Part shown: in pieces, positions 27,789 to 42,950 of the stretch
Position numbering within the stretch: the first letter of the stretch is position 1
Layout: each line of letters opens with the position of its first letter
Source of the DNA: Oligoflexia bacterium
GTDB lineage: Bacteria; Bdellovibrionota; UBA1018; CAIMNF01
Reading direction: 5' to 3'
Assembly: GCA_903831745.1 (NCBI GenBank)
Contig: CAIKYX010000130.1
Location: 5,653-69,652 of the forward strand
DNA: 64,000 bases
Made by a program: the position numbers and the translations under genes
Notes under the pieces: generated by a model
Databases searched by the model: none
The model's input: the letters and a program-made list of their open reading frames with translations, nothing else
What the model was told of the DNA's origin: nothing

Positions 27789-28544
27789 ATGATCAGCGTT
27801 GTGACCATTACCTACAACAATTACGAAGAATTGATTGAAACCCTGGATTCGATCAAGGGGCTTACCTCCGTTCAATCGATTGTCGTCAATGGCGGAAGCT
27901 GCGAGAAAACCCGAAACTTTCTTTCGAGTTATCCGGGTGTGGTCATCAGCGAAAAGGATCATGGCATTTCGGATGCTTTTAACAAGGGGCTTAAACTAGC
28001 CGAAGGAACGGGTGTGATGTTCCTCAATTCGGGCGACCGCCTGATTTTTCGTGATTACCCTGCAGTCGCCGAAGAACTGCTTGGAAAATACGATTTCATC
28101 CATTCAGACATCATTTTCGATGATGCAATCACCGGCCCCATTCGCATGAAACCCGCCCTTTGCTCCGTAGGGTATGGCATGCCTTATTTTCACCAATCGA
28201 TGGTCATCAAAAGCGAATGGATGAGAAAAGCAGGCCTTTTCGATCTGAATTTTAAAATCGCCATGGACTACGATTATGTGATCAGGCTTCAGAAACTCGG
28301 AGCGCGTGGATATTACTTTAATGCCGCACCGACCATTCATATGGATGGCCAGGGAATTTCAGCAACCCAGGAAAACAAGAGCCTGGCCGAATGTTATACC
28401 TCGATGAAGAAGAACGATGTGCTGAACCTTCAGAACCGTGCTGGCTTCGCGCTAAGAAAAGCGAGATTATCGGCCAGACAAACCTTAACCCGCCTGGGCC
28501 TTCCTTCGGTCATCGGCTGGATCAAGAAAATCAAACACTCTTAG
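27789..28544 (+). CDS. Glycosyltransferase family 2
   Basis: 251 aa. MISVVTITYNNYEELIETLDSI...SEKDHGISDAFNKGL...FLNSGD (GT-A fold DxD-like). Confidence 0.8.
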   Translation: MISVVTITYNNYEELIETLDSIKGLTSVQSIVVNGGSCEKTRNFLSSYPGVVISEKDHGISDAFNKGLKLAEGTGVMFLNSGDRLIFRDYPAVAEELLGKYDFIHSDIIFDDAITGPIRMKPALCSVGYGMPYFHQSMVIKSEWMRKAGLFDLNFKIAMDYDYVIRLQKLGARGYYFNAAPTIHMDGQGISATQENKSLAECYTSMKKNDVLNLQNRAGFALRKARLSARQTLTRLGLPSVIGWIKKIKHS

Positions 28545-29659
28545 TCCTGGTCGATATGAAAAAGATCTTTTTGTGAAAAAGCCTGCAGAGACGCTGAAAA
28601 ATCCTGCTTCATGCTGCCTTCATCAAGATATCCCACCCAATTGATTTTCGGAAACATCGACCCGCCAAAAAGCTCTTTAAAATGACTGATCGACACTTCT
28701 TTCGCCGAGGCTTGATACAACCAATGCGGCCCGAAATAAAGCTCACCCAGCTCGTAAAACAAAAACCCCAACTTGCGGTAATGCAGAATCGCTTCCCATT
28801 CGAGAATATGCCGCGGCGAATATTCACGCTCATATTCCTCGAGATTCGCCTGCGACCAACTCCAAACCATTTTTGAAAACTCACCACAATACAAAAAACT
28901 AATGGGTTTTTCTTCGACAAAGGCCACAAAAAGGCGCGCTTGCCCCTGGTGAGCACGGGCGAGCATGGCATCCCAGGTCGAGTGAGGCCTGGTCCACCGT
29001 CCCGCTGAAAGATAATGGGCATTCTTAAAAGCCGCGAAATTCGCGTCGAGTTCTTGAGCGCTTTCACTAGCAGAAAAAGATCGAACACTTACGCCCTTTT
29101 TGGCGGCCTGCCTGACGTTGATTCGGTGCGATTTAGAAACGTTATTTAAGAGCGTCTCTTCAGGCAAACTCAGGTTCATGATGGCAGTATTCTTGATATC
29201 CGAAAGGAATCCATACTTCTTCATCTCGAATCCATTTTCAAAACCCACGAGACTCTGATCGCACACCCCTCGGGTAATCGGGTGACTGATCATTCGCACC
29301 TTTTTTGCCCCTGCTTCTCGAGCGATACCGTAAACCTGTGCAAAAACCTCGGCAGAGATCTTGCGACGCAGTGTTGGCTGAATGGTGACGAACGCAGGTG
29401 CGGCTAATGGATTTCCACCCAGTGACAGTTCGTTTTCACCGGTTTTGGTATTTTTAGTCAGACCCAAAGCACAAACCGCAAGCGGGGTCTTTTCGTTTTC
29501 AAGCAAAATGAATGATTTTTGCTCTGTATTTTCATCAAAAAGTTGATTGTAATGAAGCCAATCCCAGCCATGCTGGTAAGTCGCTTCTTGAATCTGATTT
29601 ACCCAACCATCCCATTGTTCGCGCGTCGTCGCCTGGTGATGCTTGACTTTAAACTCCAT
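28541..29659 (-). CDS. FemAB-family / GNAT-fold acyl- or aminoacyl-transferase (Acetyltransf_6/DUF482-like)
   Basis: About 372 aa, starting at MEFKVKHHQ (ATG 29657-29659; 11-nt overlap with the pseI stop). Two-lobed GNAT-like architecture resembling FemX/FemAB peptidyl-transferases (LFVAFVEEKPISFLYCGEF...YSPRHILEWEAILHYRKLGFLFYELGE). Confidence 0.6.
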   Translation of the reverse strand: MEFKVKHHQATTREQWDGWVNQIQEATYQHGWDWLHYNQLFDENTEQKSFILLENEKTPLAVCALGLTKNTKTGENELSLGGNPLAAPAFVTIQPTLRRKISAEVFAQVYGIAREAGAKKVRMISHPITRGVCDQSLVGFENGFEMKKYGFLSDIKNTAIMNLSLPEETLLNNVSKSHRINVRQAAKKGVSVRSFSASESAQELDANFAAFKNAHYLSAGRWTRPHSTWDAMLARAHQGQARLFVAFVEEKPISFLYCGEFSKMVWSWSQANLEEYEREYSPRHILEWEAILHYRKLGFLFYELGELYFGPHWLYQASAKEVSISHFKELFGGSMFPKINWVGYLDEGSMKQDFSASLQAFSQKDLFHIDQD

Positions 29660-30710
29660 TTCGAACCATCTCCCAACGAAGCGCCTGCCCTCTGAGAAGC
29701 GGTACTTTTGCCGTGCCCGCAAGAACCTGATCCATGTGTTTCGGATCAAGGCCATGTCCCGGTCGAATGATTCTTACATTTTCGTTCGTAAACTTCTCGC
29801 CGGCCTGCATGTCTTTGATGACGTAGATCGAACGCTTGAATTGAATCGACTTCTTTTCTCCCTCAGACAACTCGAAAGTCATTTTACCCAAACCCTGCCA
29901 CGCACGAAGCGACTCATCGACCAACAACTTTAACTCGTGGGGTTCCATCGAAAACGCAGAATCGACTCCACCTTCGGCCCTACTTTCGGTAAAATGCTTC
30001 TCGATCACTCGTGCGCCAAGCGCAATACTCGCGACTGACACACCGATTCCGAGCGTGTGGTCCGACAAACCAATATTCAAATCGAGTTTTTCGCGCAAAA
30101 AAGGAATGGTCATCAGATTGGTTGCCAGAGGTGATGCGGGATACGTGCTGGTACACTTTAGAAGAATCGCATCGCTTGCGCCTTCCTTCTTTAGAAAGGC
30201 ATCGAGCTCTTGAATATGTTCGAGCGAGGATATGCCGAGCGAAATAATGACGGGTTTTCCGGTTTTGATTACCTTTCGAATCAGAGGATAATGATTGTTT
30301 TCGAAAGAGGCGATTTTGTAGCATGGTGGATTGAACTGTTCCAGAAAATCGACCGCTGCTTCATCAAAGGGCGTACTGAAACAGATCAGGCCATGTTTTT
30401 TGGCGCGTTCAAAAAGAGCCGCATGCCATTCATACGGGGTATTGGCCTCTTGATACAATTCATAAAGTTTTCGACCCGCCCAAAGGCTCTTGGGATCTTG
30501 AATGATAAAATCAGGAGCATCACAGTCGATGGTCAGACTATCCGGCGTATAGGTTTGAAGCTTGATCGCCTGTGCGCCCGCTGCTGCCGCAAGGTCGATC
30601 AATTTAAGGGCCCGGTCTACCGAATGATGGTGATTACCAGAGAGTTCAGCAATGATGAACGGTGGATGATCCGGACCGATCTGATATTTTCCAATTGAAA
30701 CAGTTTTCAT
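29649..30710 (-). CDS. pseI: Pseudaminic acid synthase (NeuB family)
   Basis: 353 aa. MKTVSIGKYQIGPDHPPFIIAELSGNHHHSVDRALKLIDLAAAAGAQAIKLQTY is the NeuB TIM-barrel start. C-terminal antifreeze-like SAF domain. Neighbours are pseG/pseF/pseB/pseC. Confidence 0.85.
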   Translation of the reverse strand: MKTVSIGKYQIGPDHPPFIIAELSGNHHHSVDRALKLIDLAAAAGAQAIKLQTYTPDSLTIDCDAPDFIIQDPKSLWAGRKLYELYQEANTPYEWHAALFERAKKHGLICFSTPFDEAAVDFLEQFNPPCYKIASFENNHYPLIRKVIKTGKPVIISLGISSLEHIQELDAFLKKEGASDAILLKCTSTYPASPLATNLMTIPFLREKLDLNIGLSDHTLGIGVSVASIALGARVIEKHFTESRAEGGVDSAFSMEPHELKLLVDESLRAWQGLGKMTFELSEGEKKSIQFKRSIYVIKDMQAGEKFTNENVRIIRPGHGLDPKHMDQVLAGTAKVPLLRGQALRWEMVRNGV

Positions 30711-30762: not shown

Positions 30763-31752
30763 ATGCGAATCCTCTTTAGAGTCGACTCATCGCTCGAAAT
30801 CGGAACCGGACATGTGGTTCGCTGCCTTTCACTTGCCCATGCACTGAGAAACAATGGACATCAAGTGTCTTTTTGGAGCCTTGACCTTCCGGGCAATGAT
30901 CTTTCGTCAATCAGAAAAAATGGTTATTCGCTGTTTGATCCTGCTTCTTCAGATCGATTTGATCTGGCGATAGTAGACCATTATGGAATTGATCAGGAAG
31001 GCGAAAACCATATCAGACAATGGGCGACCTCGCTTGTTGCCATTGATGACTGGGGAACCAGACTTCATCACGCCGATTTGATTCTCGACCCATCGGTAAG
31101 CACCCAATCGACCCTTAGAATAAAAGCCAATCCAACCACACCGTTTCTGACCGGATTTGATTGGCTGCTCATGCGGGATGATTTCAAGAAACTTCATCCA
31201 GAAGTTCCACCTCGAACTGAATTTAAAAAGGTACTTTTGTTTTTTGGTGGAACCGATCCGCAGAGCCAGTGCCTGAGTTACCTCGAAGCACTCCTTCAAT
31301 CACAAAACGAATTCAATCATCTTGAGTTTCACATGATGGTTTCGGCAGTCCATCCAACACTCAAACAAATGCAGAGCCTGAAATTGCCAAATCATGTTCA
31401 TCTTGAAGTTTCTCCGCCCTCCGTTGCAAAGCTCATGAGAAATTCAGATCTCTATCTGGGAAGTAGCGGCACCGTCACCTGGGAAAGAATGGCCATGGGC
31501 CTGACCGGCTTGATCGTTTCGGTAGTAGATAACCAAGAGGACATTGCGAAAAACCTCGACCAAATGGGGTTTCATCGTTATCTCGGAAAATGCCAGGACG
31601 TTACCCCGAAGTTTGCATTGGAAAAGCTCAAGGAATTACTGAATCAAAGTGAAATGATTTCAAGAATGTCGTCTCTTTGTTATCAAAAAGTCGACGGACA
31701 AGGAGTCGATCGATTCGTTCAGGAGCTAGAGAATCGATTCAAAGCCACTTAG
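30763..31752 (+). CDS. pseG: UDP-2,4-diacetamido-2,4,6-trideoxy-beta-L-altropyranose hydrolase
   Basis: 329 aa. MRILFRVDSSLEIGTGHVVRCLSLAHAL is the PseG hallmark N-terminus (RxDxSxxIGxGHVMRC). GT-B-like MurG/GT28 C-domain. Confidence 0.8.
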   Translation: MRILFRVDSSLEIGTGHVVRCLSLAHALRNNGHQVSFWSLDLPGNDLSSIRKNGYSLFDPASSDRFDLAIVDHYGIDQEGENHIRQWATSLVAIDDWGTRLHHADLILDPSVSTQSTLRIKANPTTPFLTGFDWLLMRDDFKKLHPEVPPRTEFKKVLLFFGGTDPQSQCLSYLEALLQSQNEFNHLEFHMMVSAVHPTLKQMQSLKLPNHVHLEVSPPSVAKLMRNSDLYLGSSGTVTWERMAMGLTGLIVSVVDNQEDIAKNLDQMGFHRYLGKCQDVTPKFALEKLKELLNQSEMISRMSSLCYQKVDGQGVDRFVQELENRFKAT

Positions 31753-33794
31753 CCCTTCGAACCATACGTCCAACTCTGATAATCATCATGATCCTGAGAC
31801 ACTTCAAACCCTGCCTCATGGGCCATGCGAATTGAAGCGGGATTGCCTTTTTTAATTTCAGCGACATAGTGGTCTGGATTTTCGAGCACAAAACACGAGA
31901 GCATTGCTTTACCGATCCCCTGTCCCTGAAGTTCGGGAGCAACCAACCAGGAAAGCTTCCAAGCCGGTTCGCCCGAAATGCGATCTCGTCGAATCATACC
32001 CACTGGCTTTCTATTTTTGATGACCATATAAATCTCGCGATCCGCATTGCTGAGGGTTTTTTCAAACCAGGCCAGATGCTGCTCGATTGGAATACTTTCG
32101 GTCTGATGCGATTGTGCCCGTACACTTTCAGAGTTACGCCACTGGTGGACCAGATGAGCATCCTCACTTGCGGCAGGCACAAAAAGCAATTGGTCACTGA
32201 ACAGTTCCGCGGAATCACAAAAAGAACGAAACACCAAAGAATCCGTCTGCTTCAGGTACTTCGAATTCTGACAAAGGCGGACATATTCTCTTAAATGTTC
32301 GCTCTGGGTAAACTTTCGCCACTCCTGCTGAATCATCGCATTTTCATTCGCTTTGAGTTTGCCCGGAAACGGGTACAAAAAATGGAGGTAATAAAACTCA
32401 TGAATTTTTGCTTTTGCATCTGCCGGCACCGCAGGAATCGCGTCAATGTTCATCAGGAATTGCTCGTATTCTTCACGGCTTTTTGGATGCACGCAAAAAT
32501 CAAAAGTAACATGCGGATTATCACCTGCATTCAACACCCGAATTCCTTGATACGGAAACTCATGACCCAAAGTACCATATACGGTAACCGCAAGATCAAA
32601 GCCCTCGTCTAACAACTGTTTATTGCTGGTATGACGAGGCAGGAATTTGATCTCCGGAAATTCCTTTTTCAATTGTTCGATAATCTCGTCATTTCCTGCA
32701 ACCCCGTTCGGATGGGCCTTCACATAAAAATCTGCGGGGCTTTGAGTAGCAATTTTTAGCGTTGCCCGAATCCAATGGTAAAAGTCAGGATAAAGCATCG
32801 AACGATAGCCATGAGGGCTGTCGAAGAAACAATGAAGAAAAACCACCACCCTCTTTTTACCATTTTGCGCAAACACCTTTGACTTCTCGTCTACAGGCGA
32901 ATGATAGGCGCTCGAATTCATGTAAGTAATGGCCTGGTCCTTTTCGCCCGAGAATCGTTTCAGCAGCATGGTTTCTGCGGCACTTTTTCCAACTTGCTTT
33001 TCGGAATCGCTGAGCCGCTGAAACGAGCCGTGATAGTCGGTAAAATTCTTGCTATGAAATGGAAATTCACTGACCAGCTTCATGCTCAATTGATCATAAT
33101 CTCCGAATGAAATTACTTTTACGCCACGAGCGAGTGCCACTCGGGCCATGATTCCGTGCTGAATATAGCTACTATAGGAAGTGATCAGATAATCGTACTT
33201 TTTTTCAGAGAGCAAGGATTCGGCGCGATTGAAAATGTGAAGTGCGCTTACCATAATCCGTTTTAAGAACGGATCCTTGAGATCAACGGTCGGGCTCGGC
33301 TTGAATCTTAAGTAAGTATCATAGATCAGGCTCCCGATCAGGATACCGTGATATTGAAGTTCGAGCAGCGAAAATGGATCTGAAAGACCCATGAAAAGAT
33401 CTTCTGCCTCTGCAACCCAGACCGGATTCAAATCAGATTCATAAAAGATATGAGAGAAAACGGCCTTACCCCCATTTGACTGGTAGAGTTTGTTCCACTT
33501 TCTTTCGAAGAATCGATTTCTCTTGAGGAATCCTGATTTGCCAGAACGTTGGAACTCCGTATTGACATTGATCCAGCCGATATCGACTTTGAATTTTCTC
33601 CTGAGCGAGCGAAGAAGCGAAGAAAACAACAGCAGATAATAGTACTCTTCTGGCATCTGAACCAGTACTTTCAATTCCGAACCCGTTTTTGAAGGCACGA
33701 CTAACGATCGATTGAAACGGATGAATTCCTTCTCTGCAGCGTTAAGAAAAACCGCTGACTTAACGTTCTGAAGTTGAAGAAGGACTTTATTCAT
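31749..33794 (-). CDS. Two-domain protein: Capsule_synth (KpsC/KpsS)-like putative nonulosonic/keto-sugar-acid transferase + C-terminal PseH-like GNAT N-acetyltransferase
   Basis: 681 aa. N-terminal ~540 aa carry KpsS-like motifs (VVVFLHCFFDSPHG ... DFYVKAHP ... FDLAVTVYGTLGHEFPYQGIRVLNAGDNPH). The C-terminal ~130 aa form a GNAT (MVIKNRKPVGMIRRD...LVAPELQGQGIGKAML). Paralogous to the 33887..35347 product. Confidence 0.65.
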   Translation of the reverse strand: MNKVLLQLQNVKSAVFLNAAEKEFIRFNRSLVVPSKTGSELKVLVQMPEEYYYLLLFSSLLRSLRRKFKVDIGWINVNTEFQRSGKSGFLKRNRFFERKWNKLYQSNGGKAVFSHIFYESDLNPVWVAEAEDLFMGLSDPFSLLELQYHGILIGSLIYDTYLRFKPSPTVDLKDPFLKRIMVSALHIFNRAESLLSEKKYDYLITSYSSYIQHGIMARVALARGVKVISFGDYDQLSMKLVSEFPFHSKNFTDYHGSFQRLSDSEKQVGKSAAETMLLKRFSGEKDQAITYMNSSAYHSPVDEKSKVFAQNGKKRVVVFLHCFFDSPHGYRSMLYPDFYHWIRATLKIATQSPADFYVKAHPNGVAGNDEIIEQLKKEFPEIKFLPRHTSNKQLLDEGFDLAVTVYGTLGHEFPYQGIRVLNAGDNPHVTFDFCVHPKSREEYEQFLMNIDAIPAVPADAKAKIHEFYYLHFLYPFPGKLKANENAMIQQEWRKFTQSEHLREYVRLCQNSKYLKQTDSLVFRSFCDSAELFSDQLLFVPAASEDAHLVHQWRNSESVRAQSHQTESIPIEQHLAWFEKTLSNADREIYMVIKNRKPVGMIRRDRISGEPAWKLSWLVAPELQGQGIGKAMLSCFVLENPDHYVAEIKKGNPASIRMAHEAGFEVSQDHDDYQSWTYGSKG

Positions 33795-33886
33795 TGCTCT
33801 GGCAGCCTTTTGAAAAACATTTTTCCATTGGAATTAAACTATGTTAAGTTGTTTTATTAAGAATCAAGGATAAAAGCGAGGAAATT

Positions 33887-35347
33887 TTGAAAAGCCTGAT
33901 TTATAATGGAACTCATTCGCAAGTTTCGATCGACATCCTGAAAGGGATCCTCGCCTCCTCACCCGCCCTTGAAGATGTGTGCATTATTTCTTCAGTTGCT
34001 GCGAAGCCTGAAGAAATCGATTTCAAGCAAATCCGCCATCAGGAATTCGATTATTTTAAGGTTCATGATGCCATTTATCCTGAAATCACAGCGCTTCAGC
34101 AAGGGCTGATGCTCGACGGCCCCAGACTCGATCAGATGTCTTCCTATTGGTTCGTCGCTCTTAAAATGATGGATCGGCTGTCACCCGAAATTGCCCTCAA
34201 TTACCACACGCGCATGGAGCTTCTTCTCAATCACATCCGTTTTTGGGATGCGTACCTGACTGAATACAAAGTCGATTGCTACATGGGAATGAATTATCCC
34301 CACGAGGTTTTTGATTACGTCATTTATGCGCTTTGCAAATCGAAGGGTATTCGCACCCTGTTCTTCGATACACCTCAAGTTCCGGGTTATGTTCAACTGA
34401 TTGATTCGGTAGAAGAAAATAATCCTCAAATTAAAAAACTGATTGAAGCCCAGCCAGCCCCTGCGAACATCAGGCTCGAACCCAGACTCGAGGAGTATTA
34501 CCAACGTCAGACTACGAATTATCAGACCCCGAAATACATGCAAAAGAATCTGGCCAGTCTGAAGCGCGAAACCTCTACGGTCCAACTCATTCAACGTTTC
34601 TTTACCCGCTCTTGGTCGCGGATCAAGCGTGCCGTGACGCTGAGGCATCTCAATTATGACCGCGTGATTAAAATTCTTTATTTTAATACCCTCTTTGGTT
34701 CAAGGGCAGAACGAAAACTCAAACAGGCCTACCAAGCATTGGTCAGCATTCCCGACTTTTCAAAACCGTATATTTTTGTTCCGCTTCATTTTCAACCCGA
34801 ATGCACCACCAGCCCCCAAGGCGGTTATTTTGTGTTTCAAGAGCTCCTGATCGAGATGTTAGAGCGCACTTTGCCCGAAGGGCACCTGATCTACGTCAAG
34901 GAACATCCGATTCAACGATTACACGGACGCTCAGCCGGATTTTATCAAAAAATTGCAGCATTTAAGAAAGTCAGACTCGTTCCACTCGAAACCAGTGCAC
35001 AAGACCTCATCAAAAGCAGCCTCGCCGTTGCTACGGTAACCGGCACCGCGGGATGGGAAGGACTCTTCAAGAATAAGCCCGTATTCTTGTTTGGATCGGT
35101 ATTCTTTCAATATGCCCCGGGAGTATATACGATTCGAAGTGAAAGCGACTGTAGGCTTGCACTCAAAGAAATTCTCTCTCGAACCACTCCATTCGATTTT
35201 TCGAGAGAGCTCAGATATTTTTTATCTAAGGTACCAGAATTCATGATTCGCGGATGGATCGATTCTTCCTATGAAGATGTTGCGGGCATCACTTACCCCG
35301 AAAACCTCAAAAACCTCGTTACCGCGGTTCAGAATCGCCTTCGATAA
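33887..35347 (+). CDS. Capsule_synth (KpsC/KpsS)-like putative glycosyltransferase (paralog of 31749..33794 N-domain)
   Basis: 486 aa. Apparent TTG start with a GAGGA RBS. Motifs YIFVPLHFQPECTTSP, LIYVKEHP and SSLAVATVTGTAGWEGLFKNKPVFLFGSVFFQY parallel the KpsS/KpsC signature (LQV..D / KxHP / S..GfEAl..gKPV). Confidence 0.6.
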   Translation: MKSLIYNGTHSQVSIDILKGILASSPALEDVCIISSVAAKPEEIDFKQIRHQEFDYFKVHDAIYPEITALQQGLMLDGPRLDQMSSYWFVALKMMDRLSPEIALNYHTRMELLLNHIRFWDAYLTEYKVDCYMGMNYPHEVFDYVIYALCKSKGIRTLFFDTPQVPGYVQLIDSVEENNPQIKKLIEAQPAPANIRLEPRLEEYYQRQTTNYQTPKYMQKNLASLKRETSTVQLIQRFFTRSWSRIKRAVTLRHLNYDRVIKILYFNTLFGSRAERKLKQAYQALVSIPDFSKPYIFVPLHFQPECTTSPQGGYFVFQELLIEMLERTLPEGHLIYVKEHPIQRLHGRSAGFYQKIAAFKKVRLVPLETSAQDLIKSSLAVATVTGTAGWEGLFKNKPVFLFGSVFFQYAPGVYTIRSESDCRLALKEILSRTTPFDFSRELRYFLSKVPEFMIRGWIDSSYEDVAGITYPENLKNLVTAVQNRLR

Positions 35348-35351
35348 AATC

Positions 35352-36677
35352 CTAAAGGATTTTTCTGAAAACAGGCTTGGCCACGTCACCTACCAAGAAC
35401 TTCTGATACCCGCCTTCGAGCGCCTTTTGATAAACCTCGAGAGTACCGCCCAACGCTTCCATGAAAGAGTCCGCTTCAGCTTTCTCGTGAGAAAAACAAG
35501 GCACAAACACACCTTGAAACAACACGCCTCGCTTGATCATTTCTTGAAGCGCCAGGGTGCGCATTCCTGGACACACTGTATTTTCTTTGTTCTTAAAAAT
35601 AAACATCGGAAACCACTCGCTCGGCACAAACTGAACGTAATCGGCCAAACCATTTTTTTGAATCAGTGCTTTGGCCGCTTCCGAAAAGTAATTTCCAATT
35701 TGATGATTGTGTTGAAGCACATTCTTGGTCTTGAATTCGTGAATAGTGGCAATCGCTGCCGCGAGCGATATCGTTTCGCCGCCATGAGTACTGGAAATCA
35801 AAAATACTTTCTCATCACCCTTCTTTCGAATTCCCCCCAGCTCCATGACCTCTTTCTTTCCGGTCAGGGCGCAAAATGAAAAACCGTTGGCAATTCCCTT
35901 ACCCCACGTCGCCATGTCGGGCACCACGCCGTACTTCTTGATTGAGCCAGGAAAGTCGGTTTTAAAACCGGTAATCATCTCGTCGACAATAAAAAGCGCA
36001 CCATTTTTAGCGCAAATTTCTTGAATTTCTTTAAGGTAGGTCGGGGCGTGAATATTGCTCTTTTCGGGCTCTGAAATCACACAAGAAATCTGATTCGGGT
36101 ATTTTACAAACAGCTCTTTTAACGTTTCGAGATCTGTAGATTTGAAAGTCAGACTTAAATCAGAAAACTCTTCGGGCACTCCGCGGTTACAAGCCGTCTT
36201 TCCAATAAACCAATCATCATAAGAATAAAATGGATGATCCCCCGGAAAAGCCACTAATTTTCGATTGGTCTTTGCTCGAGCAAGCTTTACAGCGGCAGTG
36301 GTGACGGTAGATCCGTTCTTTGCAAACTTGATCATGTCGTGGCCTGGCGTGAGCGACAAAAAAGCCTCAGCAGTCTGACGCTCGAGCACTGACGGTCGTT
36401 GAAAATTTACACCATCCTCGAGTGCGCGTCGTACCGCTTCATTGACCGGCTCATAGGCATGACCCAAACTCACCGAAGTTAGTCCCATCGAACAATCCAG
36501 ATATTTATTTTCATCCAGATCCCAAACATAAGCTCCCTTGCCTCTCAGGATCGCAGCCGGTGCTTGTTCTGGAAACTGGTCGTCTCCTTTTGAATAGGTG
36601 TGCGCCCCCCCCGGAATCAGGTCGTGAATGACTTTTCGGTATTCGTTTGATTTTTGAAATTGAGTAATGAAGTTCAT
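35352..36677 (-). CDS. Class-III (glutamate-1-semialdehyde aminomutase-like) PLP-dependent aminotransferase
   Basis: 441 aa. GAHTYSKG, DCSMGLTSVSLGHAY, FIVDEMITGFK, and PLP-lysine context MATWGKGIANGFS. Confidence 0.85.
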   Translation of the reverse strand: MNFITQFQKSNEYRKVIHDLIPGGAHTYSKGDDQFPEQAPAAILRGKGAYVWDLDENKYLDCSMGLTSVSLGHAYEPVNEAVRRALEDGVNFQRPSVLERQTAEAFLSLTPGHDMIKFAKNGSTVTTAAVKLARAKTNRKLVAFPGDHPFYSYDDWFIGKTACNRGVPEEFSDLSLTFKSTDLETLKELFVKYPNQISCVISEPEKSNIHAPTYLKEIQEICAKNGALFIVDEMITGFKTDFPGSIKKYGVVPDMATWGKGIANGFSFCALTGKKEVMELGGIRKKGDEKVFLISSTHGGETISLAAAIATIHEFKTKNVLQHNHQIGNYFSEAAKALIQKNGLADYVQFVPSEWFPMFIFKNKENTVCPGMRTLALQEMIKRGVLFQGVFVPCFSHEKAEADSFMEALGGTLEVYQKALEGGYQKFLVGDVAKPVFRKIL

Positions 36678-36687
36678 AATTACGTCC

Positions 36688-37362
36688 TTATTCCTGAATC
36701 AAGGCCAGATAGTCCCGCCAAGGACGATCGTACCCTATTTGTTTCACTAGTTTTGAAATGACTTGAAAATCTTCTTCGCGATCGACAGTCAGGCGGATTT
36801 TGCTTTGATCAATACCCTGGGCATGATTTCCGAGCTTAAATATTTCGGGATGTTCCCAAATATACGGGGTAACATGTTCGGTCTCGCGAGGTTTCGACGC
36901 TTCATCAAAAGCCCGTTTCAGAGCACTGAATCGAAAGATTTCTACATCGAGTCCATCCGGATAAGTCGCAGGGTGAACATTCGAATAGTAATCAAAATCC
37001 GATTTTTCGAATTTTTGCAGCATTTCGTCGATCATCGCACCGTCGTTCAAAGGACAATCAGAGGTAACTCGAATGACTGTCTCGGGTTGATAGCGTTCGG
37101 CTGCGCGGTAAAACCGTTCAAGCACATGGTGAAGTGACCCGCGATAAGAAAGACAGCCCATTTTTGTTGCAATCGAAACAATTTCTACCGACTCGGGCTC
37201 GTCCGTTGTTGCCACCATGATTGCGTCAGAAAGATGCGACCACTTAAGTCGGTGCAAATGAATCTCAAGTAGAGTCACTCCATCGATGGTCTTCAGAACT
37301 TTGCCCGGAAGCCTGGTTGAACCAAAGCGAGCCTGAGTGATGATCAGAGTTTTCATTTCCAA
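36688..37362 (-). CDS. pseF: Pseudaminic acid cytidylyltransferase (CMP-NeuAc synthetase family)
   Basis: 224 aa. MEMKTLIITQARFGSTRLPGKVLK (CTP_transf_3 signature). Confidence 0.8.
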   Translation of the reverse strand: MEMKTLIITQARFGSTRLPGKVLKTIDGVTLLEIHLHRLKWSHLSDAIMVATTDEPESVEIVSIATKMGCLSYRGSLHHVLERFYRAAERYQPETVIRVTSDCPLNDGAMIDEMLQKFEKSDFDYYSNVHPATYPDGLDVEIFRFSALKRAFDEASKPRETEHVTPYIWEHPEIFKLGNHAQGIDQSKIRLTVDREEDFQVISKLVKQIGYDRPWRDYLALIQE

Positions 37363-38222
37363 GCCCTCGGATCAATCCATTTCGGATTTTCAATCTGGAT
37401 ACTCGATATTTGGTCGATGATACCTGGGCTTAAAATCTGACTTTGAACAGAAAGGTTATCCATCAGCTGCCTTTGACTTTCGACTCCGATAATGATCCGA
37501 TCGATTTCTTCGAAGTGCGAAGCATAGGCGAGAGCCAGATGGTTTACCGGTAACCCCATTTGTTTTGAAAGTTCGCGCAAACGCAGAAGCTCTGGCTTCA
37601 GAGGCTTGAGCATCTCCGGCAAGAGTTCGAGTTCACGATAAAAAAGCCCCTGCAAAAACACCGAGCGCACATGGACTTCTTTTTTGTTGGCTTTGGCTCG
37701 CCTGATCCCAGGCCCTCGGAGCGACCAATTATCGAATAAATTAAAAGGTGTTTGAATGATATCGATGTGGTCAAGCAGAGCGGCAGCGTCGAGCTCCTCA
37801 ACAGTATAAACAGACACGCCGATTTTCTGAATCAGGCCACCGTTCTTTAGGTCAAGAAGTTCGTGCTTTTTCTCGAGGTCATGAACGTCGGAAAACTGAT
37901 GATAGGAATAGCCATATACTCCGCAAACACCCAACCGCTCCAGACTCGAACTCAGCTGTTTTTTCAAGCTTGCTTCGTTAGATTTGAATTTGGTCAGAAT
38001 TTTAAAATGATGGTTTGGATGTTTTAAAAAATAACTTCCGATGATTTGTTCGCTCTCGCCGTAACTCTCGGCAGTATCCAGATAACGGATTCCTTCGCGT
38101 TCACAGAGATCCAGGATCAAGAAGGCTTCGCCTTCGCTCGGTTTTCCGGTTTGATTGTTAATGCCATAAGGCAATCCCAATTGAACCGTACCCAAGACCA
38201 GTTTCTCTTGAAGAGAGTTCAT
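37353..38222 (-). CDS. Aldo/keto reductase
   Basis: 289 aa. LVLGTVQLGLPYGINNQ...LDTAESYGESEQIIG is the AKR N-terminal signature. Translationally coupled to pseC (upstream) and pseF (downstream). Confidence 0.8.
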   Translation of the reverse strand: MNSLQEKLVLGTVQLGLPYGINNQTGKPSEGEAFLILDLCEREGIRYLDTAESYGESEQIIGSYFLKHPNHHFKILTKFKSNEASLKKQLSSSLERLGVCGVYGYSYHQFSDVHDLEKKHELLDLKNGGLIQKIGVSVYTVEELDAAALLDHIDIIQTPFNLFDNWSLRGPGIRRAKANKKEVHVRSVFLQGLFYRELELLPEMLKPLKPELLRLRELSKQMGLPVNHLALAYASHFEEIDRIIIGVESQRQLMDNLSVQSQILSPGIIDQISSIQIENPKWIDPRAWK

Positions 38223-39373
38223 CGCGCAAAAAACTCCTTCAGACTACCCACGACCCGAGTCTGCTCTTCATCTGACATCGAGTGATACATCGGAATACTC
38301 AAACACTGATTATAGAAAGCATCAGACAGTTCGAACTGTTGCTTTCCATAGCGTTCAACGTAATACGGATGCTGATGCACCGGTATGTAGTGAACTTGGG
38401 CATAAATATTTTTGGTCTTTAAGAAGTCATAAAGTTCGCGACGCTGGGCCGTCTGAATCACGTACAAATGAAATGCATGAACCGAATCAGGCGCGGTATA
38501 AGGAAGTACTACCGGTAGATCCTTTAGCTCGTGATCATACCGTTTTGCAATCTCCTGACGCCGTTTAAAATTAGCTTCTGCACGCTTAAGCTGACTATTT
38601 CCGAGGGCACAGAGCATATCTGGAATGCGATAATTGTAACCCAACTCTTGCATCTCCATAAACCAGCCCCCGTCGTTTCGGGCCATTTGTGCCGGGTCTT
38701 TGGTAATGCCATGAGTGCGAAGTTTCTGCATCCGCTGATAGAGCTTCTGGTCGTTAGTCGTGATCATTCCCCCTTCGCCGCTCGCGATGTGTTTGACCGG
38801 ATGAAATGAGAAAATGCTGAGCTCGGAATATTTGCCGTTTCCTGAGCGCTGCACCGTCTTTTGCGCATCTAAAAAACTCGCCCCAGGAGCATGACATGCG
38901 TCTTCGATGATCCAAAGTCCGTAACGATCGGCCAACGCGCGAAAAGCATCCGCCTGAATCGGATGACCAGCATAATCGACAGGAATAATGCCAGAATATT
39001 TCTTGGGATTCTTTTTCAGCAAATCCTCGACCCTGTTTAAATCGAGGCAATAAGTTTTAGGATCGATATCGGCGAAGTCGACATCGCCTCCGCAATAAAG
39101 AACACAGTTCGCACTCGCCGCAAACGTAATGGGGCTCGTAATCACTCTTTGGCCAGGCTTTACATTCAGTGCCATTGTAGAAAGATGAAGGGCTGCGGTT
39201 CCATTGGCCACAGCAACTGCATATCGGGCGCCTACGTAACGGGCAAACGCTTCTTCGAATTCGTTCACCATCGGACCTTGGGTTAAAAAATCAGATTGCA
39301 ACGAAGCCACTACCGCCTGAATGTCGTCTTCGGTGATTTGCTGCTTGCCATAAGGAATGGTTGAACTTGCCAT
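38219..39373 (-). CDS. pseC: UDP-4-amino-4,6-dideoxy-N-acetyl-beta-L-altrosamine transaminase (DegT family)
   Basis: 384 aa. IPYGKQQITEDDIQAVVASLQSDFLTQGPMVNEFEEAF matches the PseC N-terminus pattern. PLP lysine in SFHPVKHIASGEGG. Directly downstream of pseB. Confidence 0.82.
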   Translation of the reverse strand: MASSTIPYGKQQITEDDIQAVVASLQSDFLTQGPMVNEFEEAFARYVGARYAVAVANGTAALHLSTMALNVKPGQRVITSPITFAASANCVLYCGGDVDFADIDPKTYCLDLNRVEDLLKKNPKKYSGIIPVDYAGHPIQADAFRALADRYGLWIIEDACHAPGASFLDAQKTVQRSGNGKYSELSIFSFHPVKHIASGEGGMITTNDQKLYQRMQKLRTHGITKDPAQMARNDGGWFMEMQELGYNYRIPDMLCALGNSQLKRAEANFKRRQEIAKRYDHELKDLPVVLPYTAPDSVHAFHLYVIQTAQRRELYDFLKTKNIYAQVHYIPVHQHPYYVERYGKQQFELSDAFYNQCLSIPMYHSMSDEEQTRVVGSLKEFFAR

Positions 39374-39375
39374 GA

Positions 39376-40386
39376 TTACGCCTCGAAATGGTGGTCAACA
39401 TGTTCCTTGATCTGGACCCTTAATTCTTCAGCCGACAACCATTCTGTGTTTTCGCCCGAATTGTATTTAAACCCTTCGGTAACAAATTTTGCCGAAAACT
39501 TTTTCAGGTAATCGTCTTTCTTCCAGTTCGGATGACTTGGAATGATGACATAATACTTTCCGCAATCGAGCGTATTCAGCGAATCTGATTCAGTAATCAT
39601 CTCTTCGTGTAACTTTTCGCCCGAGCGAATTCCCACGATCTCGGTCTTACATTTCGGACCAATGGCTTTTGCCATTTCGAGAATTCGATAAGAAGGAATC
39701 TTCGGGACGAAAATCTCGCCGCCCCAGGAATTTTCGAGCGCATGAAGTACCATCTTTACACCCTCTTCTAGCGTAATATTGAAACGGGTCATGTTTTCGT
39801 GCGTTACTGGCAGCGTTCCGGTCGAACGCATTTTCATGAAAAACGGAACCACAGAGCCGCGAGAGCCAAGCACGTTTCCGTAGCGGACCACCGAAAAAGT
39901 GAGATCGCGTTTTCCCTTAATATTATTGGCAGCAATGAAAAGCTTGTCCGAGCATAGTTTGGTTGCACCATACAGATTCACCGGTGCCGCCGCCTTATCG
40001 GTCGAAAGCGCAACCACCTTGGTGACACCGCAATCGAGGGCTGCGTTGATGACATTTTCGGCGCCGAAAATATTGGTGTTGATACATTCCATTGGATTGT
40101 ACTCGGCAGTCGGAACCTGCTTGAGCGCCGCTGCATGGATGATGATGTCGACACCTTCACAAGCACGTTTCATGCGGGCACCATCTCGAACATCACCAAT
40201 GAAATATCTCATTTGCGGATATTTCTTCGGATCAAATTGCTGGGCCATTTCGAATTGCTTGAGTTCGTCCCGTGAGTAAACAATTAATTTTTTTACTTCG
40301 GGATAAAGCTCCAGAACCATCTGAATGAATTTTTTTCCGAAAGATCCGGTTCCACCGGTTACCAATATGGTTTTACCTTTTAGCAT
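39376..40386 (-). CDS. pseB: UDP-N-acetylglucosamine 4,6-dehydratase (inverting)
   Basis: 336 aa. MLKGKTILVTGGTGSFGKKFIQMVLELYPEVKKLIVYSRDELKQFEM...HAAALKQVPTAEYNPMECINTNIFGAENV...YGATKLCSDKLF is near-identical in pattern to Campylobacter/Helicobacter PseB (FlaA1). Confidence 0.92.
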   Translation of the reverse strand: MLKGKTILVTGGTGSFGKKFIQMVLELYPEVKKLIVYSRDELKQFEMAQQFDPKKYPQMRYFIGDVRDGARMKRACEGVDIIIHAAALKQVPTAEYNPMECINTNIFGAENVINAALDCGVTKVVALSTDKAAAPVNLYGATKLCSDKLFIAANNIKGKRDLTFSVVRYGNVLGSRGSVVPFFMKMRSTGTLPVTHENMTRFNITLEEGVKMVLHALENSWGGEIFVPKIPSYRILEMAKAIGPKCKTEIVGIRSGEKLHEEMITESDSLNTLDCGKYYVIIPSHPNWKKDDYLKKFSAKFVTEGFKYNSGENTEWLSAEELRVQIKEHVDHHFEA

Positions 40387-42089
40387 ATTCCACCTCTATC
40401 TTTTTTCAGCTCCAGGGTTCTGGTAGCAATTTTATCGAAACTTGATTTGTGACTGATGATAATGGTCGTAATTTCTTTGAGAATGCCTTCGATCGAACGA
40501 ATGAATTTGGATTCTGTTTCGCCATCGAGATTGGCTGTCGCTTCATCGAGAATCAGGATCTGGGGCTTTCGAACCACGCCACGTGCGATGGATAAACGCT
40601 GCTTTTGTCCGGTCGACATGGGCGTTTGTTCTTGAATGAAATAATCGAGAGCAAATCGCTCGTCAGTGAGTTGCGCTTTTAAAAGAGCGTCTTTCATCTC
40701 CGCATCGGTCACTGTTTCTGGACTATGGTGACCGAACAAGAGGTTTTCGCGAATGGTTCCTGCAATCATATAGGGTTCGGGCCCGACATAGGCCACTCGT
40801 TCGAACAAACTGTTTTTTACAGATTCAATGGGCGCACCATTGATCAGCACCCCACCCCGGCTGGGCTTAAGTAGACCGAGCACCAGCATCAAAAGCGTGC
40901 TTTTACCGACTCCCGATTCGCCCTTGATCAGCAGCACCTGACCACGCCCCACCTCGAGGCTCAAATCATTGAATAGCTTCGGACCGCTGACATAACCAAA
41001 ATCGACGTTCTTAAGCTGAATCGAAACACCTTGCTCGCATGAAAGCGGAAGAACCGGAAACTTCTTCTCGGAATCTTCTTTTGCTTTTTGCTGACTCAGA
41101 CGTTCGTGCCATTGATAGATTTCCTTGAACCCTCCGAGATGAAGTCTGAATTCAGAAAGGGCAATATTGGCATCGCTCGCCCCTTGAGCTAGCCTGATAA
41201 AAAGATAGAAAAACGAAATCAGGGTAATCGCAGGAGTATGAATGTAGGCGATGCTGATATAGGTGATCGAACTGATGACAAAAATGCCAATGATATTCGG
41301 AAAGAAATTTTTTACAGAAGAGGCAACGAAATACGAACGGTAGTGCTGCTCGTAAACCACCAGAGCCGTATTCGCTCGTTTGATTTCACGATCTAACAAA
41401 CCATAGATCTTCAGCAAGAAATGGTGCCTCAGGCCTTCCATCAAAATCTTACTGACATTCTCCCACTGCCCACGAAAGCCATCTCCTGCTTTTTTGATGC
41501 CGGAATTGAACCGCCTGAGAGGGACAAGAAAAATACCGAGAAAGGTAAGCCCGATCAGCATCTCGATCGGTGCAAGCTTAAGCCCCATGGCAAAAAACAA
41601 AAAGGAAGAAGTTCCGACTAGCGTGAGTTGCGACAAGGACTGAAGCACTGAACCCGCCTGTGCCACACGTTCGGTAAAAATAGTAATGACCTGATGTGCA
41701 GAAACATCTTCGGCCTTGAGAAGCGCATACTCGAGCGTTCGAGAACGCTGAAGGCGAACGAACGCCTGCCCCGTCACGCCAGCAAGATAGGATCGGATCA
41801 TGTAAGCCACACCGCGGGCTACTCCGAACGTAAACAGAATCAAGACGGCTGAAAGAAGACTTGTCGGATACCACGCCGGCAATTTAAGGTCAGGCGACTT
41901 TACCAAGCCAATCGCCTGAAGAAATCCTTGAAGCACCGGAATAAACGACGCTTCGATCAGGAACATGAAAATTCCAAAGACGGTGGAAACAAAGAAAAGT
42001 CTCCAGACTTCCTTACCTAAAAAATTCTTAAACTTCCGAAATTGCTGCAGGTACTTTTGAATCATGTTTTGATTGAAAAAGGGTACCAA
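40380..42089 (-). CDS. ABC exporter, fused TMD-NBD half-transporter (type I exporter, MsbA-like fold)
   Basis: 569 aa. Six N-terminal TM helices, Walker A GESGVGKST, signature LSGGQKQRLSIARG (as read on the protein), Walker B ILILDEATANLD. First gene of the minus-strand operon that continues into pseB-pseC-AKR-pseF. Confidence 0.85.
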   Translation of the reverse strand: MVPFFNQNMIQKYLQQFRKFKNFLGKEVWRLFFVSTVFGIFMFLIEASFIPVLQGFLQAIGLVKSPDLKLPAWYPTSLLSAVLILFTFGVARGVAYMIRSYLAGVTGQAFVRLQRSRTLEYALLKAEDVSAHQVITIFTERVAQAGSVLQSLSQLTLVGTSSFLFFAMGLKLAPIEMLIGLTFLGIFLVPLRRFNSGIKKAGDGFRGQWENVSKILMEGLRHHFLLKIYGLLDREIKRANTALVVYEQHYRSYFVASSVKNFFPNIIGIFVISSITYISIAYIHTPAITLISFFYLFIRLAQGASDANIALSEFRLHLGGFKEIYQWHERLSQQKAKEDSEKKFPVLPLSCEQGVSIQLKNVDFGYVSGPKLFNDLSLEVGRGQVLLIKGESGVGKSTLLMLVLGLLKPSRGGVLINGAPIESVKNSLFERVAYVGPEPYMIAGTIRENLLFGHHSPETVTDAEMKDALLKAQLTDERFALDYFIQEQTPMSTGQKQRLSIARGVVRKPQILILDEATANLDGETESKFIRSIEGILKEITTIIISHKSSFDKIATRTLELKKDRGGIC

Positions 42090-42182: not shown

Positions 42183-42950
42183 ATGATTCCTGATGAATTC
42201 AGATTAGGGCTGTTTCAATGTGACCTCACCTGGGAAAACACTTCAGCCAACCTCTCCAGACTCGAAGCTCTCGGCCCCGAGTTCGCAGGCACCTGCGACT
42301 TGCTGCTGGTTCCCGAAACCTTTTCAACGGGCTTTACCTCAAAACCTGCCGGACTCGCACTCAATGAGCAAAACGGCGCGCTCGAACGAATCATTCAGGT
42401 GGCTAAAAACCTTAAAACCCACGTAGCAGGATCATTCATCTGGAAACATGAAAACACCTACCGCAATCGCTTTATACTGGTAAACGAACTGGGAATTCAG
42501 GGGCACTACGACAAACATCATCTTTTTGGTCTAGGTCAAGAGACCCAGTTATTTCAAGCCGGAATAGAGAGGACCACTTGGATGGTCGGTGGCTTCAAGA
42601 TTGCCCCGTTTGTTTGTTATGACTTGAGATTTCCAGAATGGTGCGGAAATTCCGAAAAGTGCGATTTGATGATTTTTTGCGCAAATTGGCCCGAGGCCCG
42701 AGTCAGCCATTGGAAGACGTTGCTGAACGCAAGGGCAATCGAGAATCAATGCTACGTTGCAGGCGTGAATCGAATCGGGCGCGACGGAAACCAACTCACC
42801 TATTCGGGCGACAGCCTGGTCATCGATGCGAACGGATCGACGCTTTTGGATTCAGGGGCGACCGAATCACTTAAAATAGTAAAACTATCAAAATCTAACC
42901 TGGCCGCTTACCGCAATAAACTACCGTTTTTGAACGACCGCTTTCAGTAA
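42183..42950 (+). CDS. Carbon-nitrogen hydrolase family (nitrilase/omega-amidase-like)
   Basis: 255 aa. Starts MIPDEFRLGLFQCDLTWEN. The catalytic E-K-C triad context includes ...VCYDLRFPEW (Cys). Confidence 0.78.
   Translation: MIPDEFRLGLFQCDLTWENTSANLSRLEALGPEFAGTCDLLLVPETFSTGFTSKPAGLALNEQNGALERIIQVAKNLKTHVAGSFIWKHENTYRNRFILVNELGIQGHYDKHHLFGLGQETQLFQAGIERTTWMVGGFKIAPFVCYDLRFPEWCGNSEKCDLMIFCANWPEARVSHWKTLLNARAIENQCYVAGVNRIGRDGNQLTYSGDSLVIDANGSTLLDSGATESLKIVKLSKSNLAAYRNKLPFLNDRFQ

Follow-up and report, generated by a model that had tools for sequence, protein, structure and literature searches.

The divergent ORF A and ORF B lie within a pseudaminic acid (Pse) biosynthesis cluster at 26.7-46 kb of the 64-kb window, the whole stretch of DNA that was analyzed, which comes from an uncultured Bdellovibrionota bacterium. 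We propose, with somewhat better than even confidence, that this region encodes the transfer step of a Pse surface-glycan cluster, in which ORF B and the N-terminal domain of ORF A would be two Pse transferases. The preliminary description of this DNA had named the pair plausible Pse transferases, and its proposal is supported by the PF05159/KpsC matches, the conserved motifs and the complete Pse pathway around the two ORFs. Pseudaminic acid decorates lipopolysaccharide (LPS), capsules and glycoproteins in many bacteria. To our knowledge, few Pse-attaching enzymes are known, these being the Maf proteins, KpsS1 (GT118) and a Tannerella enzyme. The pair is laid out as follows.

31749-33794, minus strand: ORF A, 681 aa
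32199-33794, minus strand: N-terminal domain of ORF A (residues 1-532), a GT-B, KpsC-like candidate pseudaminyltransferase of an unnamed family, here 'family A'
31749-32198, minus strand: C-terminal GNAT domain of ORF A (residues 533-681 plus stop), a PseH-like N-acetyltransferase
33795-33886, no strand: divergent intergenic spacer between ORF A and ORF B, 92 bp, from sequence
33887-35347, plus strand: ORF B, 486 aa, TTG start, a candidate pseudaminyltransferase ('family B') of PF05159 (Capsule_synth)

Both ORFs are present with the lengths and positions first reported for them. They had been called convergent, but they are in fact arranged head to head as a divergent pair. It is with pseG that ORF A is convergent, the stop codons of the two genes overlapping.

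The pathway genes around the pair, and those that flank the PseF-like gene, were assigned as listed.

29649-30710, minus strand: pseI, pseudaminic acid synthase (TIGR03586, 462 bits, cut-off 340)
30763-31752, plus strand: pseG, UDP-sugar hydrolase (TIGR03590, 192 bits, cut-off 153.6), whose 3' end overlaps that of ORF A
35352-36677, minus strand: class-III (HemL-like) aminotransferase, flanking the PseF-like gene
36688-37362, minus strand: PseF-like CMP-ulosonic acid synthetase (Pfam CTP_transf_3, 108 bits; weak KdsB-subfamily matches only in NCBIfam)
37353-38222, minus strand: aldo/keto reductase, flanking the PseF-like gene on the other side
38219-39373, minus strand: pseC, aminotransferase (TIGR03588, 481 bits, cut-off 423.5)
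39376-40386, minus strand: pseB, inverting UDP-GlcNAc 4,6-dehydratase (TIGR03589, 523 bits, cut-off 408)
40380-42089, minus strand: ABC exporter with fused TMD and NBD, closing the pse operon (Pfam ABC_tran plus ABC_membrane)

The HemL-like aminotransferase and the aldo/keto reductase are likely Pse-modifying enzymes; their genes recur in the related loci L002, L003, L007 and L076. Neither a Maf/DUF115 signal nor flagellin genes are present, and the glycan targets are probably LPS or polysaccharide rather than protein.

The GNAT domain that had been reported in ORF A is real, matching Pfam Acetyltransf_3 over residues 536-664 (49.5 bits). When the domain is taken in isolation, its best NCBIfam match is PseH (TIGR03585, 52.3 bits) and its best PDB match is the PseH structure 4xpk (E 0.0015). 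It shares with PseH the GNAT fold and the QGQGIG acetyl-CoA loop, and takes the place of the stand-alone pseH-like gene of related clusters. It differs in being fused to a 532-aa GT-like domain and in scoring under the equivalog cut-off of 93.1 bits, and this shortfall (52 vs 93 bits) counts against our main explanation. The stand-alone GNAT counterparts also fall under this cut-off, at 41.9 bits in L003 and 26.8 bits in L002. In L003 the stand-alone GNAT, 43-45% identical to that of ORF A, is located between the B gene and pseG, which is the position of the A-GNAT gene in the window. No second PseH-like sequence was detected in the window, leaving the ORF A GNAT as the only PseH-like gene in a complete pseBCGI(F) cluster.

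The fusion of the two domains is taken as real because it is found in independent assemblies, the identical 681-aa ORF being called on contigs of ERZ1426549 and ERZ18668442. The window is metagenome-derived and no second fused homologue was found, as would fit an assembly or frameshift artefact uniting two separate genes. Such an artefact is nevertheless extremely unlikely: besides the identical product from separate assemblies, the reading frame is unbroken across the junction, and the junction coincides exactly with the end of stand-alone A proteins and the start of the stand-alone GNAT. The arrangement had been described as unusual, and no other A-GNAT fusion was present in 80 genome loci or in the best 150 of 1.84 billion database representatives. 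We propose to read it as a 'Rosetta stone' of one lineage, linking family A to Pse metabolism, and not as a required coupling. It may have originated by insertion of a family A gene immediately 5' of pseH, with loss of the stop codon. A different arrangement is seen in P0209 of locus L005, the one fusion of PF05159 with a GNAT that was found; this GNAT is not PseH-like, and the cluster has a separate PseH-like gene.

The motif strings quoted for the pair in the preliminary description are all present. In ORF A they are VVVFLHCFFDSPHG (residues 316-329), DFYVKAHP (355-362), TVYGTLGHE (404-412) and NAGDNPH (422-428); those of ORF B are YIFVPLHFQPECTTSP (295-310), LIYVKEHP (334-341), TVTGTAGWE (383-391) and FGSVFFQY (402-409). 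Two motifs in each protein bear on catalysis.

32820-32834, minus strand: H321-C-F-F-D325 of ORF A, counterpart of the KpsC QXXXD motif, D325 being the predicted nucleophile
32709-32720, minus strand: K359-A-H361-P362 of ORF A, the HP (predicted CMP-binding) motif, from conservation and BLASTP
34787-34801, plus strand: H301-F-Q-P-E305 of ORF B, aligned with Q161...D165 of KpsC (phmmer, 6mgd), E305 being the predicted nucleophile
34898-34909, plus strand: K338-E-H340-P341 of ORF B, the HP motif, aligned with VKVHP of KpsC

ORF A and ORF B appear from their sequences to be distantly related KpsC-like enzymes. Compared alone, they give a weak BLASTP match (27.7 bits, E 0.001, 57 aa), in which K359-A-H361-P362 of ORF A is paired with YVKEHP of ORF B. 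Comparison by hhalign of profiles built from 117 relatives of A and 112 relatives of B yields a probability of 97% (E 1e-10, 268 columns); the same profiles reach no more than 11% against the controls PseG (another GT-B), PseI and PseC. The identity between ORF A and ORF B is about 17%, and an N-terminal region of 185 residues in A has no alignment to B. The term 'paralogous' that had been used for the pair thus holds in the sense of remote homology, but not in any closer sense. The N-terminal domain of ORF A is grouped with B because of the profile-profile match together with the conserved H321xxxD325 and H361-P362.

ORF B is the more readily classified of the two, being an ordinary member of the known PF05159 group, to which it adds one more. 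It matches PF05159 over residues 208-409 (37.7 bits against a gathering threshold of 20, E 2.2e-9), as do 116 of its 120 closest relatives in precomputed matches, and its family profile matches KpsC structures at E 4e-12. Position 301 is His in 103 of the 112 relatives and Gln in 5, while Q303, P304 and E305 are each found in all 112. In the HP motif, K338 is kept in 112/112, H340 in 106/112 and P341 in 97/112. No KpsS1 structure was among the PDB sequence matches.

The KpsC/KpsS (PF05159) pattern that had been ascribed to both proteins thus holds for ORF B, but ORF A has no direct Pfam match. Residues 1-532 of ORF A found no match in Pfam, NCBIfam or the PDB sequences, with nothing at E <= 1 against PF05159. 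A Pfam scan of 65 aligned family A members returned scattered chance matches only, with PF05159 in 0/65, and the family A profile found nothing among the PDB sequences at E <= 10. This lack of a sequence match to a curated family or a solved structure counts against our main explanation. The conservation of the predicted active site in family A is strict: D325 is Asp in 117/117 relatives, K359, H361 and P362 are each kept in 117/117, and H321 is His in 115/117. One position that is Asp in 114 of the 117 relatives is Ser in ORF A, which was counted against the Pse-transferase reading. In the ORF A model, H321-C-F-F-D325 is predicted to come after the strand E315-319. The models of A and B both suggest a GT-B-like fold of two Rossmann domains, with KpsC, WbbB or KrkA as structural neighbours. 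In keeping with the kinship to KpsC first suggested, KpsC/KpsS is the best structural match to both models. It is only through profile and predicted-fold evidence that ORF A is placed in the KpsC-type superfamily.

PF05159 proteins encoded beside nonulosonic-acid modules (KpsS1, KpsS2 and Gtr59) were inferred genetically to be the transferases by Kenyon et al. 2015 (PMC4487303). For KpsS1/GT118, biochemical proof of a retaining Pse5Ac7Ac transferase comes from Walklett 2024, as cited in PMC12887879. KpsS1 of Acinetobacter baumannii KL2 is likewise a GT-B enzyme of PF05159 that is encoded beside a Pse synthesis module, uses a CMP-activated nonulosonic acid donor and is kin to KpsC, KpsS and WbbB. 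Its likeness to ORF B is drawn through the shared Pfam family and not from direct sequence comparison; the ORF A domain is wholly outside PF05159, and a fusion to PseH, as found in ORF A, is not described for KpsS1. KpsC and KpsS (GT107), the retaining beta-Kdo transferases of the group 2 capsule linker, are the best sequence match of B. [quoted passage not shown] However, the identity is only 12-14%, and A and B have large helical insertions. The retaining Kdo transferases WbbB (GT99) and KrkA (GT140), whose sequence similarity is negligible, became the founders of one new GT family each; they differ in using a Kdo donor and in being modules of larger multi-GT proteins, whereas family A proteins stand alone and their genes are linked to Pse genes. 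The role proposed for A and B, transfer of Pse from CMP-Pse, is also that of the TagB-like Pse/Leg transferase Tanf_01245/BFO_1060 of Tannerella forsythia and of the Maf flagellin transferases. An HP motif, as in ORF A and ORF B, is present in the Tannerella enzymes as well, but ORF B is without significant membership in NCBIfam BFO_1060_trans (E 0.009, 15 bits, cut-off 200). No better match to Maf/DUF115 or CDP-glycerol transferases appeared.

These comparisons bring in the alternative that A, B or both are genuine KpsC/KpsS/WbbB-type beta-Kdo transferases, with Kdo as linker, terminator or repeat-unit sugar and another enzyme transferring Pse. The nearest solved relatives of A and B are indeed Kdo transferases, the Pse cluster adjoins lipid A genes, and its cytidylyltransferase matches, weakly, only KdsB-type NCBIfam models. 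We nevertheless regard this alternative as quite unlikely. The Kdo context of KpsC/KpsS is here replaced by a Pse context, with none of the kpsM/T/E/D-type export genes, kdsA or kdsB in the window, and family A adjoins pseI across phyla. No candidate Pse transferase other than the pair, whether Maf or TagB-like BFO_1060, was detectable. In Kdo transferases the QXXXD motif is invariant, with Gln binding the carboxylate and Asp acting as nucleophile (PMC10148158, PMC12887879). Strict QXXXD is absent from both families, being HxxxD in A and HxxxE in B, with the acidic position invariant (117/117 and 112/112). An acidic residue is retained where KpsC has its nucleophile; its absence would have spoken against the enzymatic role first suggested. 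The HP motif is conserved as given above.

For the two Pse transferases that we favor, we infer the following donor, acceptors, stereochemistry and covalent mechanism. PseB and PseC would form the UDP-4-amino sugar, which the C-terminal GNAT of ORF A, acting as PseH, would N-acylate. PseG, PseI and the PseF-like cytidylyltransferase would then lead to a CMP-Pse derivative. ORF B and the ORF A N-domain would be GT-B enzymes, soluble or peripheral, that belong to the KpsC/KpsS/KpsS1 superfamily; each would use CMP-activated Pse but differ from the other in its acceptor or linkage. If they work as KpsC and WbbB do, CMP may be bound at the HP motif. The acidic residue four after the His (D325 in A, E305 in B) may attack C2 to give a covalent sugar-enzyme intermediate, and an acceptor hydroxyl would resolve this intermediate, so that the anomeric configuration is retained. 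The alteration of QXXXD (Gln to His in both, Asp to Glu in B) implies that the KpsC mechanism may not carry over.

Family A is large: clustering at 50% identity gives at least 675 clusters, and members occur in Bacteroidota, Pseudomonadota, Campylobacterota, Bdellovibrionota, Planctomycetota and Verrucomicrobiota. The proteins, about 520-540 aa long and stand-alone, as in Herbaspirillum lusitanum and Marinomonas mediterranea, share the signature HxxxD...KxHP...GT.xxE and are covered by no Pfam or NCBIfam model. The gene neighborhood was sampled in 60 species-representative loci within a 10-kb radius. The family A gene has a PseI orthologue within this distance in 38/60 loci, at a median of 1.8 kb and usually adjoining it, and a NeuB-family synthase in 46/60. 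In 10/60 loci no Pse gene lies within 10 kb, which counts against our main explanation. In 42 of 63 related loci, a homologue of the ABC exporter is no more than 10 kb away from the family A gene. The family B gene is present in 5 of the 60 loci, most family A genomes being without B; the closest relatives, L002 and L003, have retained both A and B.

Hydrolases and epimerases such as PseG and NeuC have GT-B folds as well, and this too counts against our main explanation. The ORF A N-domain could accordingly be a GT-B-fold hydrolase, epimerase, CMP-Pse modifier or non-catalytic partner with PseH, with only ORF B transferring Pse. We consider this unlikely, since the cluster already has a canonical PseG and family A shows no variation in the HP motif or in the acidic residue at the nucleophile position. 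The fusion to PseH is a one-off, and the rarity of B would leave most such Pse clusters without a transferase. The pair may instead act sequentially on one polymer, comparable to KpsS initiation and KpsC extension with poly-Kdo, giving a di- or oligo-Pse segment and not modifying two unrelated acceptors. Two superfamily members divergently transcribed from one spacer, their retention as a pair in L002 and L003 and the dedicated ABC exporter that closes the operon are consistent with such a scheme. However, the scheme is drawn purely from the poly-Kdo analogy, and in the majority of family A loci there is no B gene; it seems very unlikely.

That PF05159 enzymes serve as Pse transferases is already known from KpsS1 (GT118); what is new is the unclassified family A and its fusion to PseH. 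Returning to the reading of two Pse transferases, family A may represent a new CAZy-level family of pseudaminic-acid, or broader nonulosonic-acid, glycosyltransferases, a proposal to which we give about an even chance. Family A would be the sole candidate transferase in most Pse clusters that contain it, with the PseH fusion as a Rosetta-stone link. If confirmed, this function would provide an annotation for hundreds of 'hypothetical proteins', a GT family whose catalytic motif is altered (HxxxD), to compare mechanistically with KpsC, WbbB and KrkA, and new enzymes for chemoenzymatic pseudaminylation. Family A is the more useful result, the PseH fusion being a curiosity of a single lineage.

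Searches of the window and of unannotated neighbors in the Marinomonas locus L004 with the family HMMs gave no A or B paralogues beyond the known ones. When 31500-35600 was scanned for promoters and terminators, sites were no more numerous than in shuffled sequence, and the single promoter-like site for ORF A, at 33847-33819, does not exceed chance expectation. A GAGGA sequence is located 5-6 nt upstream of the TTG start of ORF B.

Open reading frames of 681 and 486 residues (ORF A and ORF B) were found at the coordinates where the preliminary description had placed them, and every motif string cited for them is present. The two genes are divergent, with a 92-bp spacer between their start codons, and not convergent as had been stated; it is with pseG that ORF A converges, and the stop codons of these two overlap. 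The pair sits within a complete pseudaminic acid (Pse) pathway.

ORF A, ORF B and the Pse pathway genes (NCBIfam bit score / curated cut-off, except for the cytidylyltransferase, which was assigned with Pfam)
29649-30710, PseI, 462 / 340
30763-31752, PseG, 192 / 154
31749-33794, minus strand, ORF A, 681 aa, ATG start
33887-35347, plus strand, ORF B, 486 aa, TTG start, GAGGA Shine-Dalgarno sequence
36688-37362, cytidylyltransferase, Pfam CTP_transf_3, 108
38219-39373, PseC, 481 / 423
39376-40386, PseB, 523 / 408

Further genes of the cluster encode an aldo/keto reductase, a HemL-like aminotransferase, a FemAB-like protein, a GT2, GalE and an ABC exporter. The cluster adjoins lipid A and outer-membrane genes (an LpxB-LpxK fusion, LpxD and BamA) and runs on into a large sugar-biosynthesis region. 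The closest named relatives of BamA are from Bdellovibrionales and Bdellovibrionota MAGs, at ~75% identity.

The predicted likeness of ORF B to KpsC/KpsS is borne out by a Pfam match to Capsule_synth (PF05159) of 37.7 bits against a gathering threshold of 20 bits. KpsC structures of E. coli and Thermosulfurimonas are matched by ORF B at E 1e-6 and by a 64-sequence profile of its relatives (family B) at E 4e-12; WbbB matches this profile weakly. The N-domain of ORF A (residues 1-532) has no Pfam or NCBIfam match, and no match among PDB sequences even with a 65-sequence profile; PF05159 matches 0/65 of its relatives (family A). A non-transferase role for this domain could be entertained, and is considered less likely than glycosyl transfer. 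The only Pfam match on ORF A is a GNAT domain at residues 536-664 (Acetyltransf_3, 49.5 bits), which sets its start at ~536, near the earlier estimate of ~545-681. Its proposed PseH-like character is upheld by its best NCBIfam family, PseH, although the score of 52.3 bits is under the 93.1 cut-off, and by its best PDB sequence match, the C. jejuni PseH structure 4xpk. No other PseH-like sequence was found in the 64-kb window.

The kinship claimed for the two proteins is marginal when they are compared alone (BLASTP, 27.7 bits, E 0.001, 57 residues covering YVKxHP...TVxGTxGxE), but is clear from the sequence profiles at the family level. Aligned by hhalign, families A (117 relatives) and B (112 relatives) match with a probability of 97% and E 1e-10 over 268 columns, A 185-467 with B 114-445, whereas control profiles built from the same loci for PseG (another GT-B family), PseI and PseC reach 11% or less.

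In KpsC-type Kdo transferases the QXXXD motif is invariant, with Gln binding the carboxylate and Asp (Asp160 in KpsC-N and Asp165 in KpsC-C of T. dismutans) serving as the nucleophile, and CMP is bound by an HP motif (PMC10148158, PMC12887879). The phmmer alignment sets PLHFQPE of ORF B onto PGQVESD of KpsC-C, with H301 on the Gln and E305 on Asp165. In family B, Q303, P304, E305 and K338 are each present in 112/112 relatives, E391 in 111/112, H340 in 106/112, H301 in 103/112 (Q in 5) and P341 in 97/112. In family A, D325, K359, H361, P362, G407 and E412 are each present in 117/117 and H321 in 115/117. The motif residues lie on loops that follow strands E315-319 and E355-359 in the ORF A model and strands E295-299 and E334-338 in the ORF B model, and these strands are equivalent in the predicted structures. 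From this conservation and these loop positions, both families retain the HP motif and, where KpsC has its nucleophile, an invariant acidic residue; the Gln is replaced by His in both and the Asp by Glu in family B. Kdo transfer in place of Pse transfer is considered the less likely activity. Ser155 of ORF A (33330-33332, minus strand) falls in a near-invariant G-D-L-I-Y-D motif of the N-terminal domain, where 114/117 family A members have Asp.

An assembly artefact is a very unlikely explanation of the A-GNAT fusion, as an identical 681-aa product occurs on contigs of separate metagenome assemblies and the reading frame is unbroken across the junction. Stand-alone A proteins stop at about query residue 532, and the alignment to a stand-alone GNAT (43-45% identical) in the related locus L003 begins a few residues before the junction. 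That GNAT lies between the B gene and pseG, the exact place of A-GNAT in the window, with the A gene of L003 5.5 kb away. In the simplest history, an A gene would have been inserted directly upstream of pseH, followed by loss of the stop codon. The fusion is unusual, as had been suggested: no second A-GNAT case was found in 80 genome loci or among the best 150 of 675 database representatives. Locus L005 (10001-12085) encodes P0209, a 694-aa family B (PF05159) protein fused to a GNAT; it was rejected as a second PseH fusion because the GNAT of P0209 does not resemble PseH and a separate PseH-like gene is present in the same cluster. Other genes of the L005 cluster encode two HisH/HisF-like pairs, a radical SAM/SPASM enzyme and an MBOAT.

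A search of 1.84 billion clusters at 50% identity yields at least 675 family A representatives at E <= 1e-30; the best 150 are all <=574 aa, and each matches the N-domain once only. Its members occur in Bacteroidota, Beta- and Gammaproteobacteria, Campylobacterota, Bdellovibrionota, Planctomycetota and Verrucomicrobiota. Of 60 species-representative loci, all 15 kb or longer, 38 carry a PseI orthologue (at least 44% identity) no more than 10 kb from the family A gene; the median distance between the gene centres is 1.8 kb, which makes the two genes adjacent. A NeuB-family synthase is present in 46/60 and PseG in 31/60. A family B gene accompanies family A in only 5/60 loci. Both are retained in the closest relatives, L002 and L003. 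Sequential, KpsS/KpsC-like action of A and B is considered less likely than separate transfers. In Marinomonas mediterranea (CP047694.1, 782-15659), the family A gene stands in a row with three unannotated 440-480-aa proteins, which have no match to the A and B HMMs, and a PF05159 gene, together with a 750-aa NeuB+AP_endonuc_2 fusion and a second NeuB.

PF05159 genes beside nonulosonic-acid modules (KpsS1, KpsS2, Gtr59) were assigned as cognate transferases a decade ago (PMC4487303), and KpsS1 was later demonstrated to be a retaining Pse5Ac7Ac transferase, the founder of GT118 (Walklett 2024, as cited in PMC12887879). Further Pse transferases are Maf proteins and TagB-like Tannerella enzymes. 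The earlier proposal of KpsC/KpsS-like Pse transferases is therefore right in its central inference but not new for ORF B. What is new is that family A is a widespread unannotated relative with an HxxxD motif and the usual neighbour of pseI, fused in this lineage to the only PseH candidate of the pathway. On balance we favour, with more confidence for B than for A, the reading that ORF B and the ORF A N-domain are CMP-Pse-dependent retaining glycosyltransferases, which would serve two acceptors or linkages of an LPS or polysaccharide, with the ORF A C-domain as the source of PseH activity. For both proteins we infer the donor, the acceptor, the stereochemistry and the mechanism.

Several other genes of the window are also described.

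13190-15277, minus strand, LpxB-LpxK fusion in one 695-aa ORF
28541-29755, minus strand, FemAB-family/Acetyltransf_6 protein, directly downstream of pseI
40380-42089, minus strand, fused TMD-NBD ABC exporter at the end of the pse operon
42944-44896, minus strand, 650-aa soluble protein without Pfam match
44893-45912, minus strand, FkbM-type methyltransferase
56565-58627, plus strand, thiamine-dependent E1 dehydrogenase alpha and beta subunits
59625-61610, plus strand, 661-aa protein with ~12 hydrophobic segments and no Pfam match

The Lpx fusion joins LpxB (lipid-A-disaccharide synthase, residues 6-369) and LpxK (tetraacyldisaccharide 4'-kinase, from residue 402), two successive lipid A steps. 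The longest ORF of the FemAB-family gene overlaps pseI by ~100 nt, and gene callers choose a 372-aa start; its product may modify the Pse derivative with an aminoacyl or acyl group. The 650-aa protein and methyltransferase pair is retained in L003 (18512-21450) at 48% and 63% identity. The 661-aa protein, within the sugar cluster, could be a polymerase, ligase or GT-C-type enzyme. The E1 dehydrogenase genes stand amid nucleotide-sugar genes, beside genes for a methyltransferase and a 4,6-dehydratase-like protein; their position is a hint of a sugar that is branched or acylated. In 42/63 related loci, a homologue of the ABC exporter is encoded no more than 10 kb from the family A gene, which suggests a conserved export or flipping partner.
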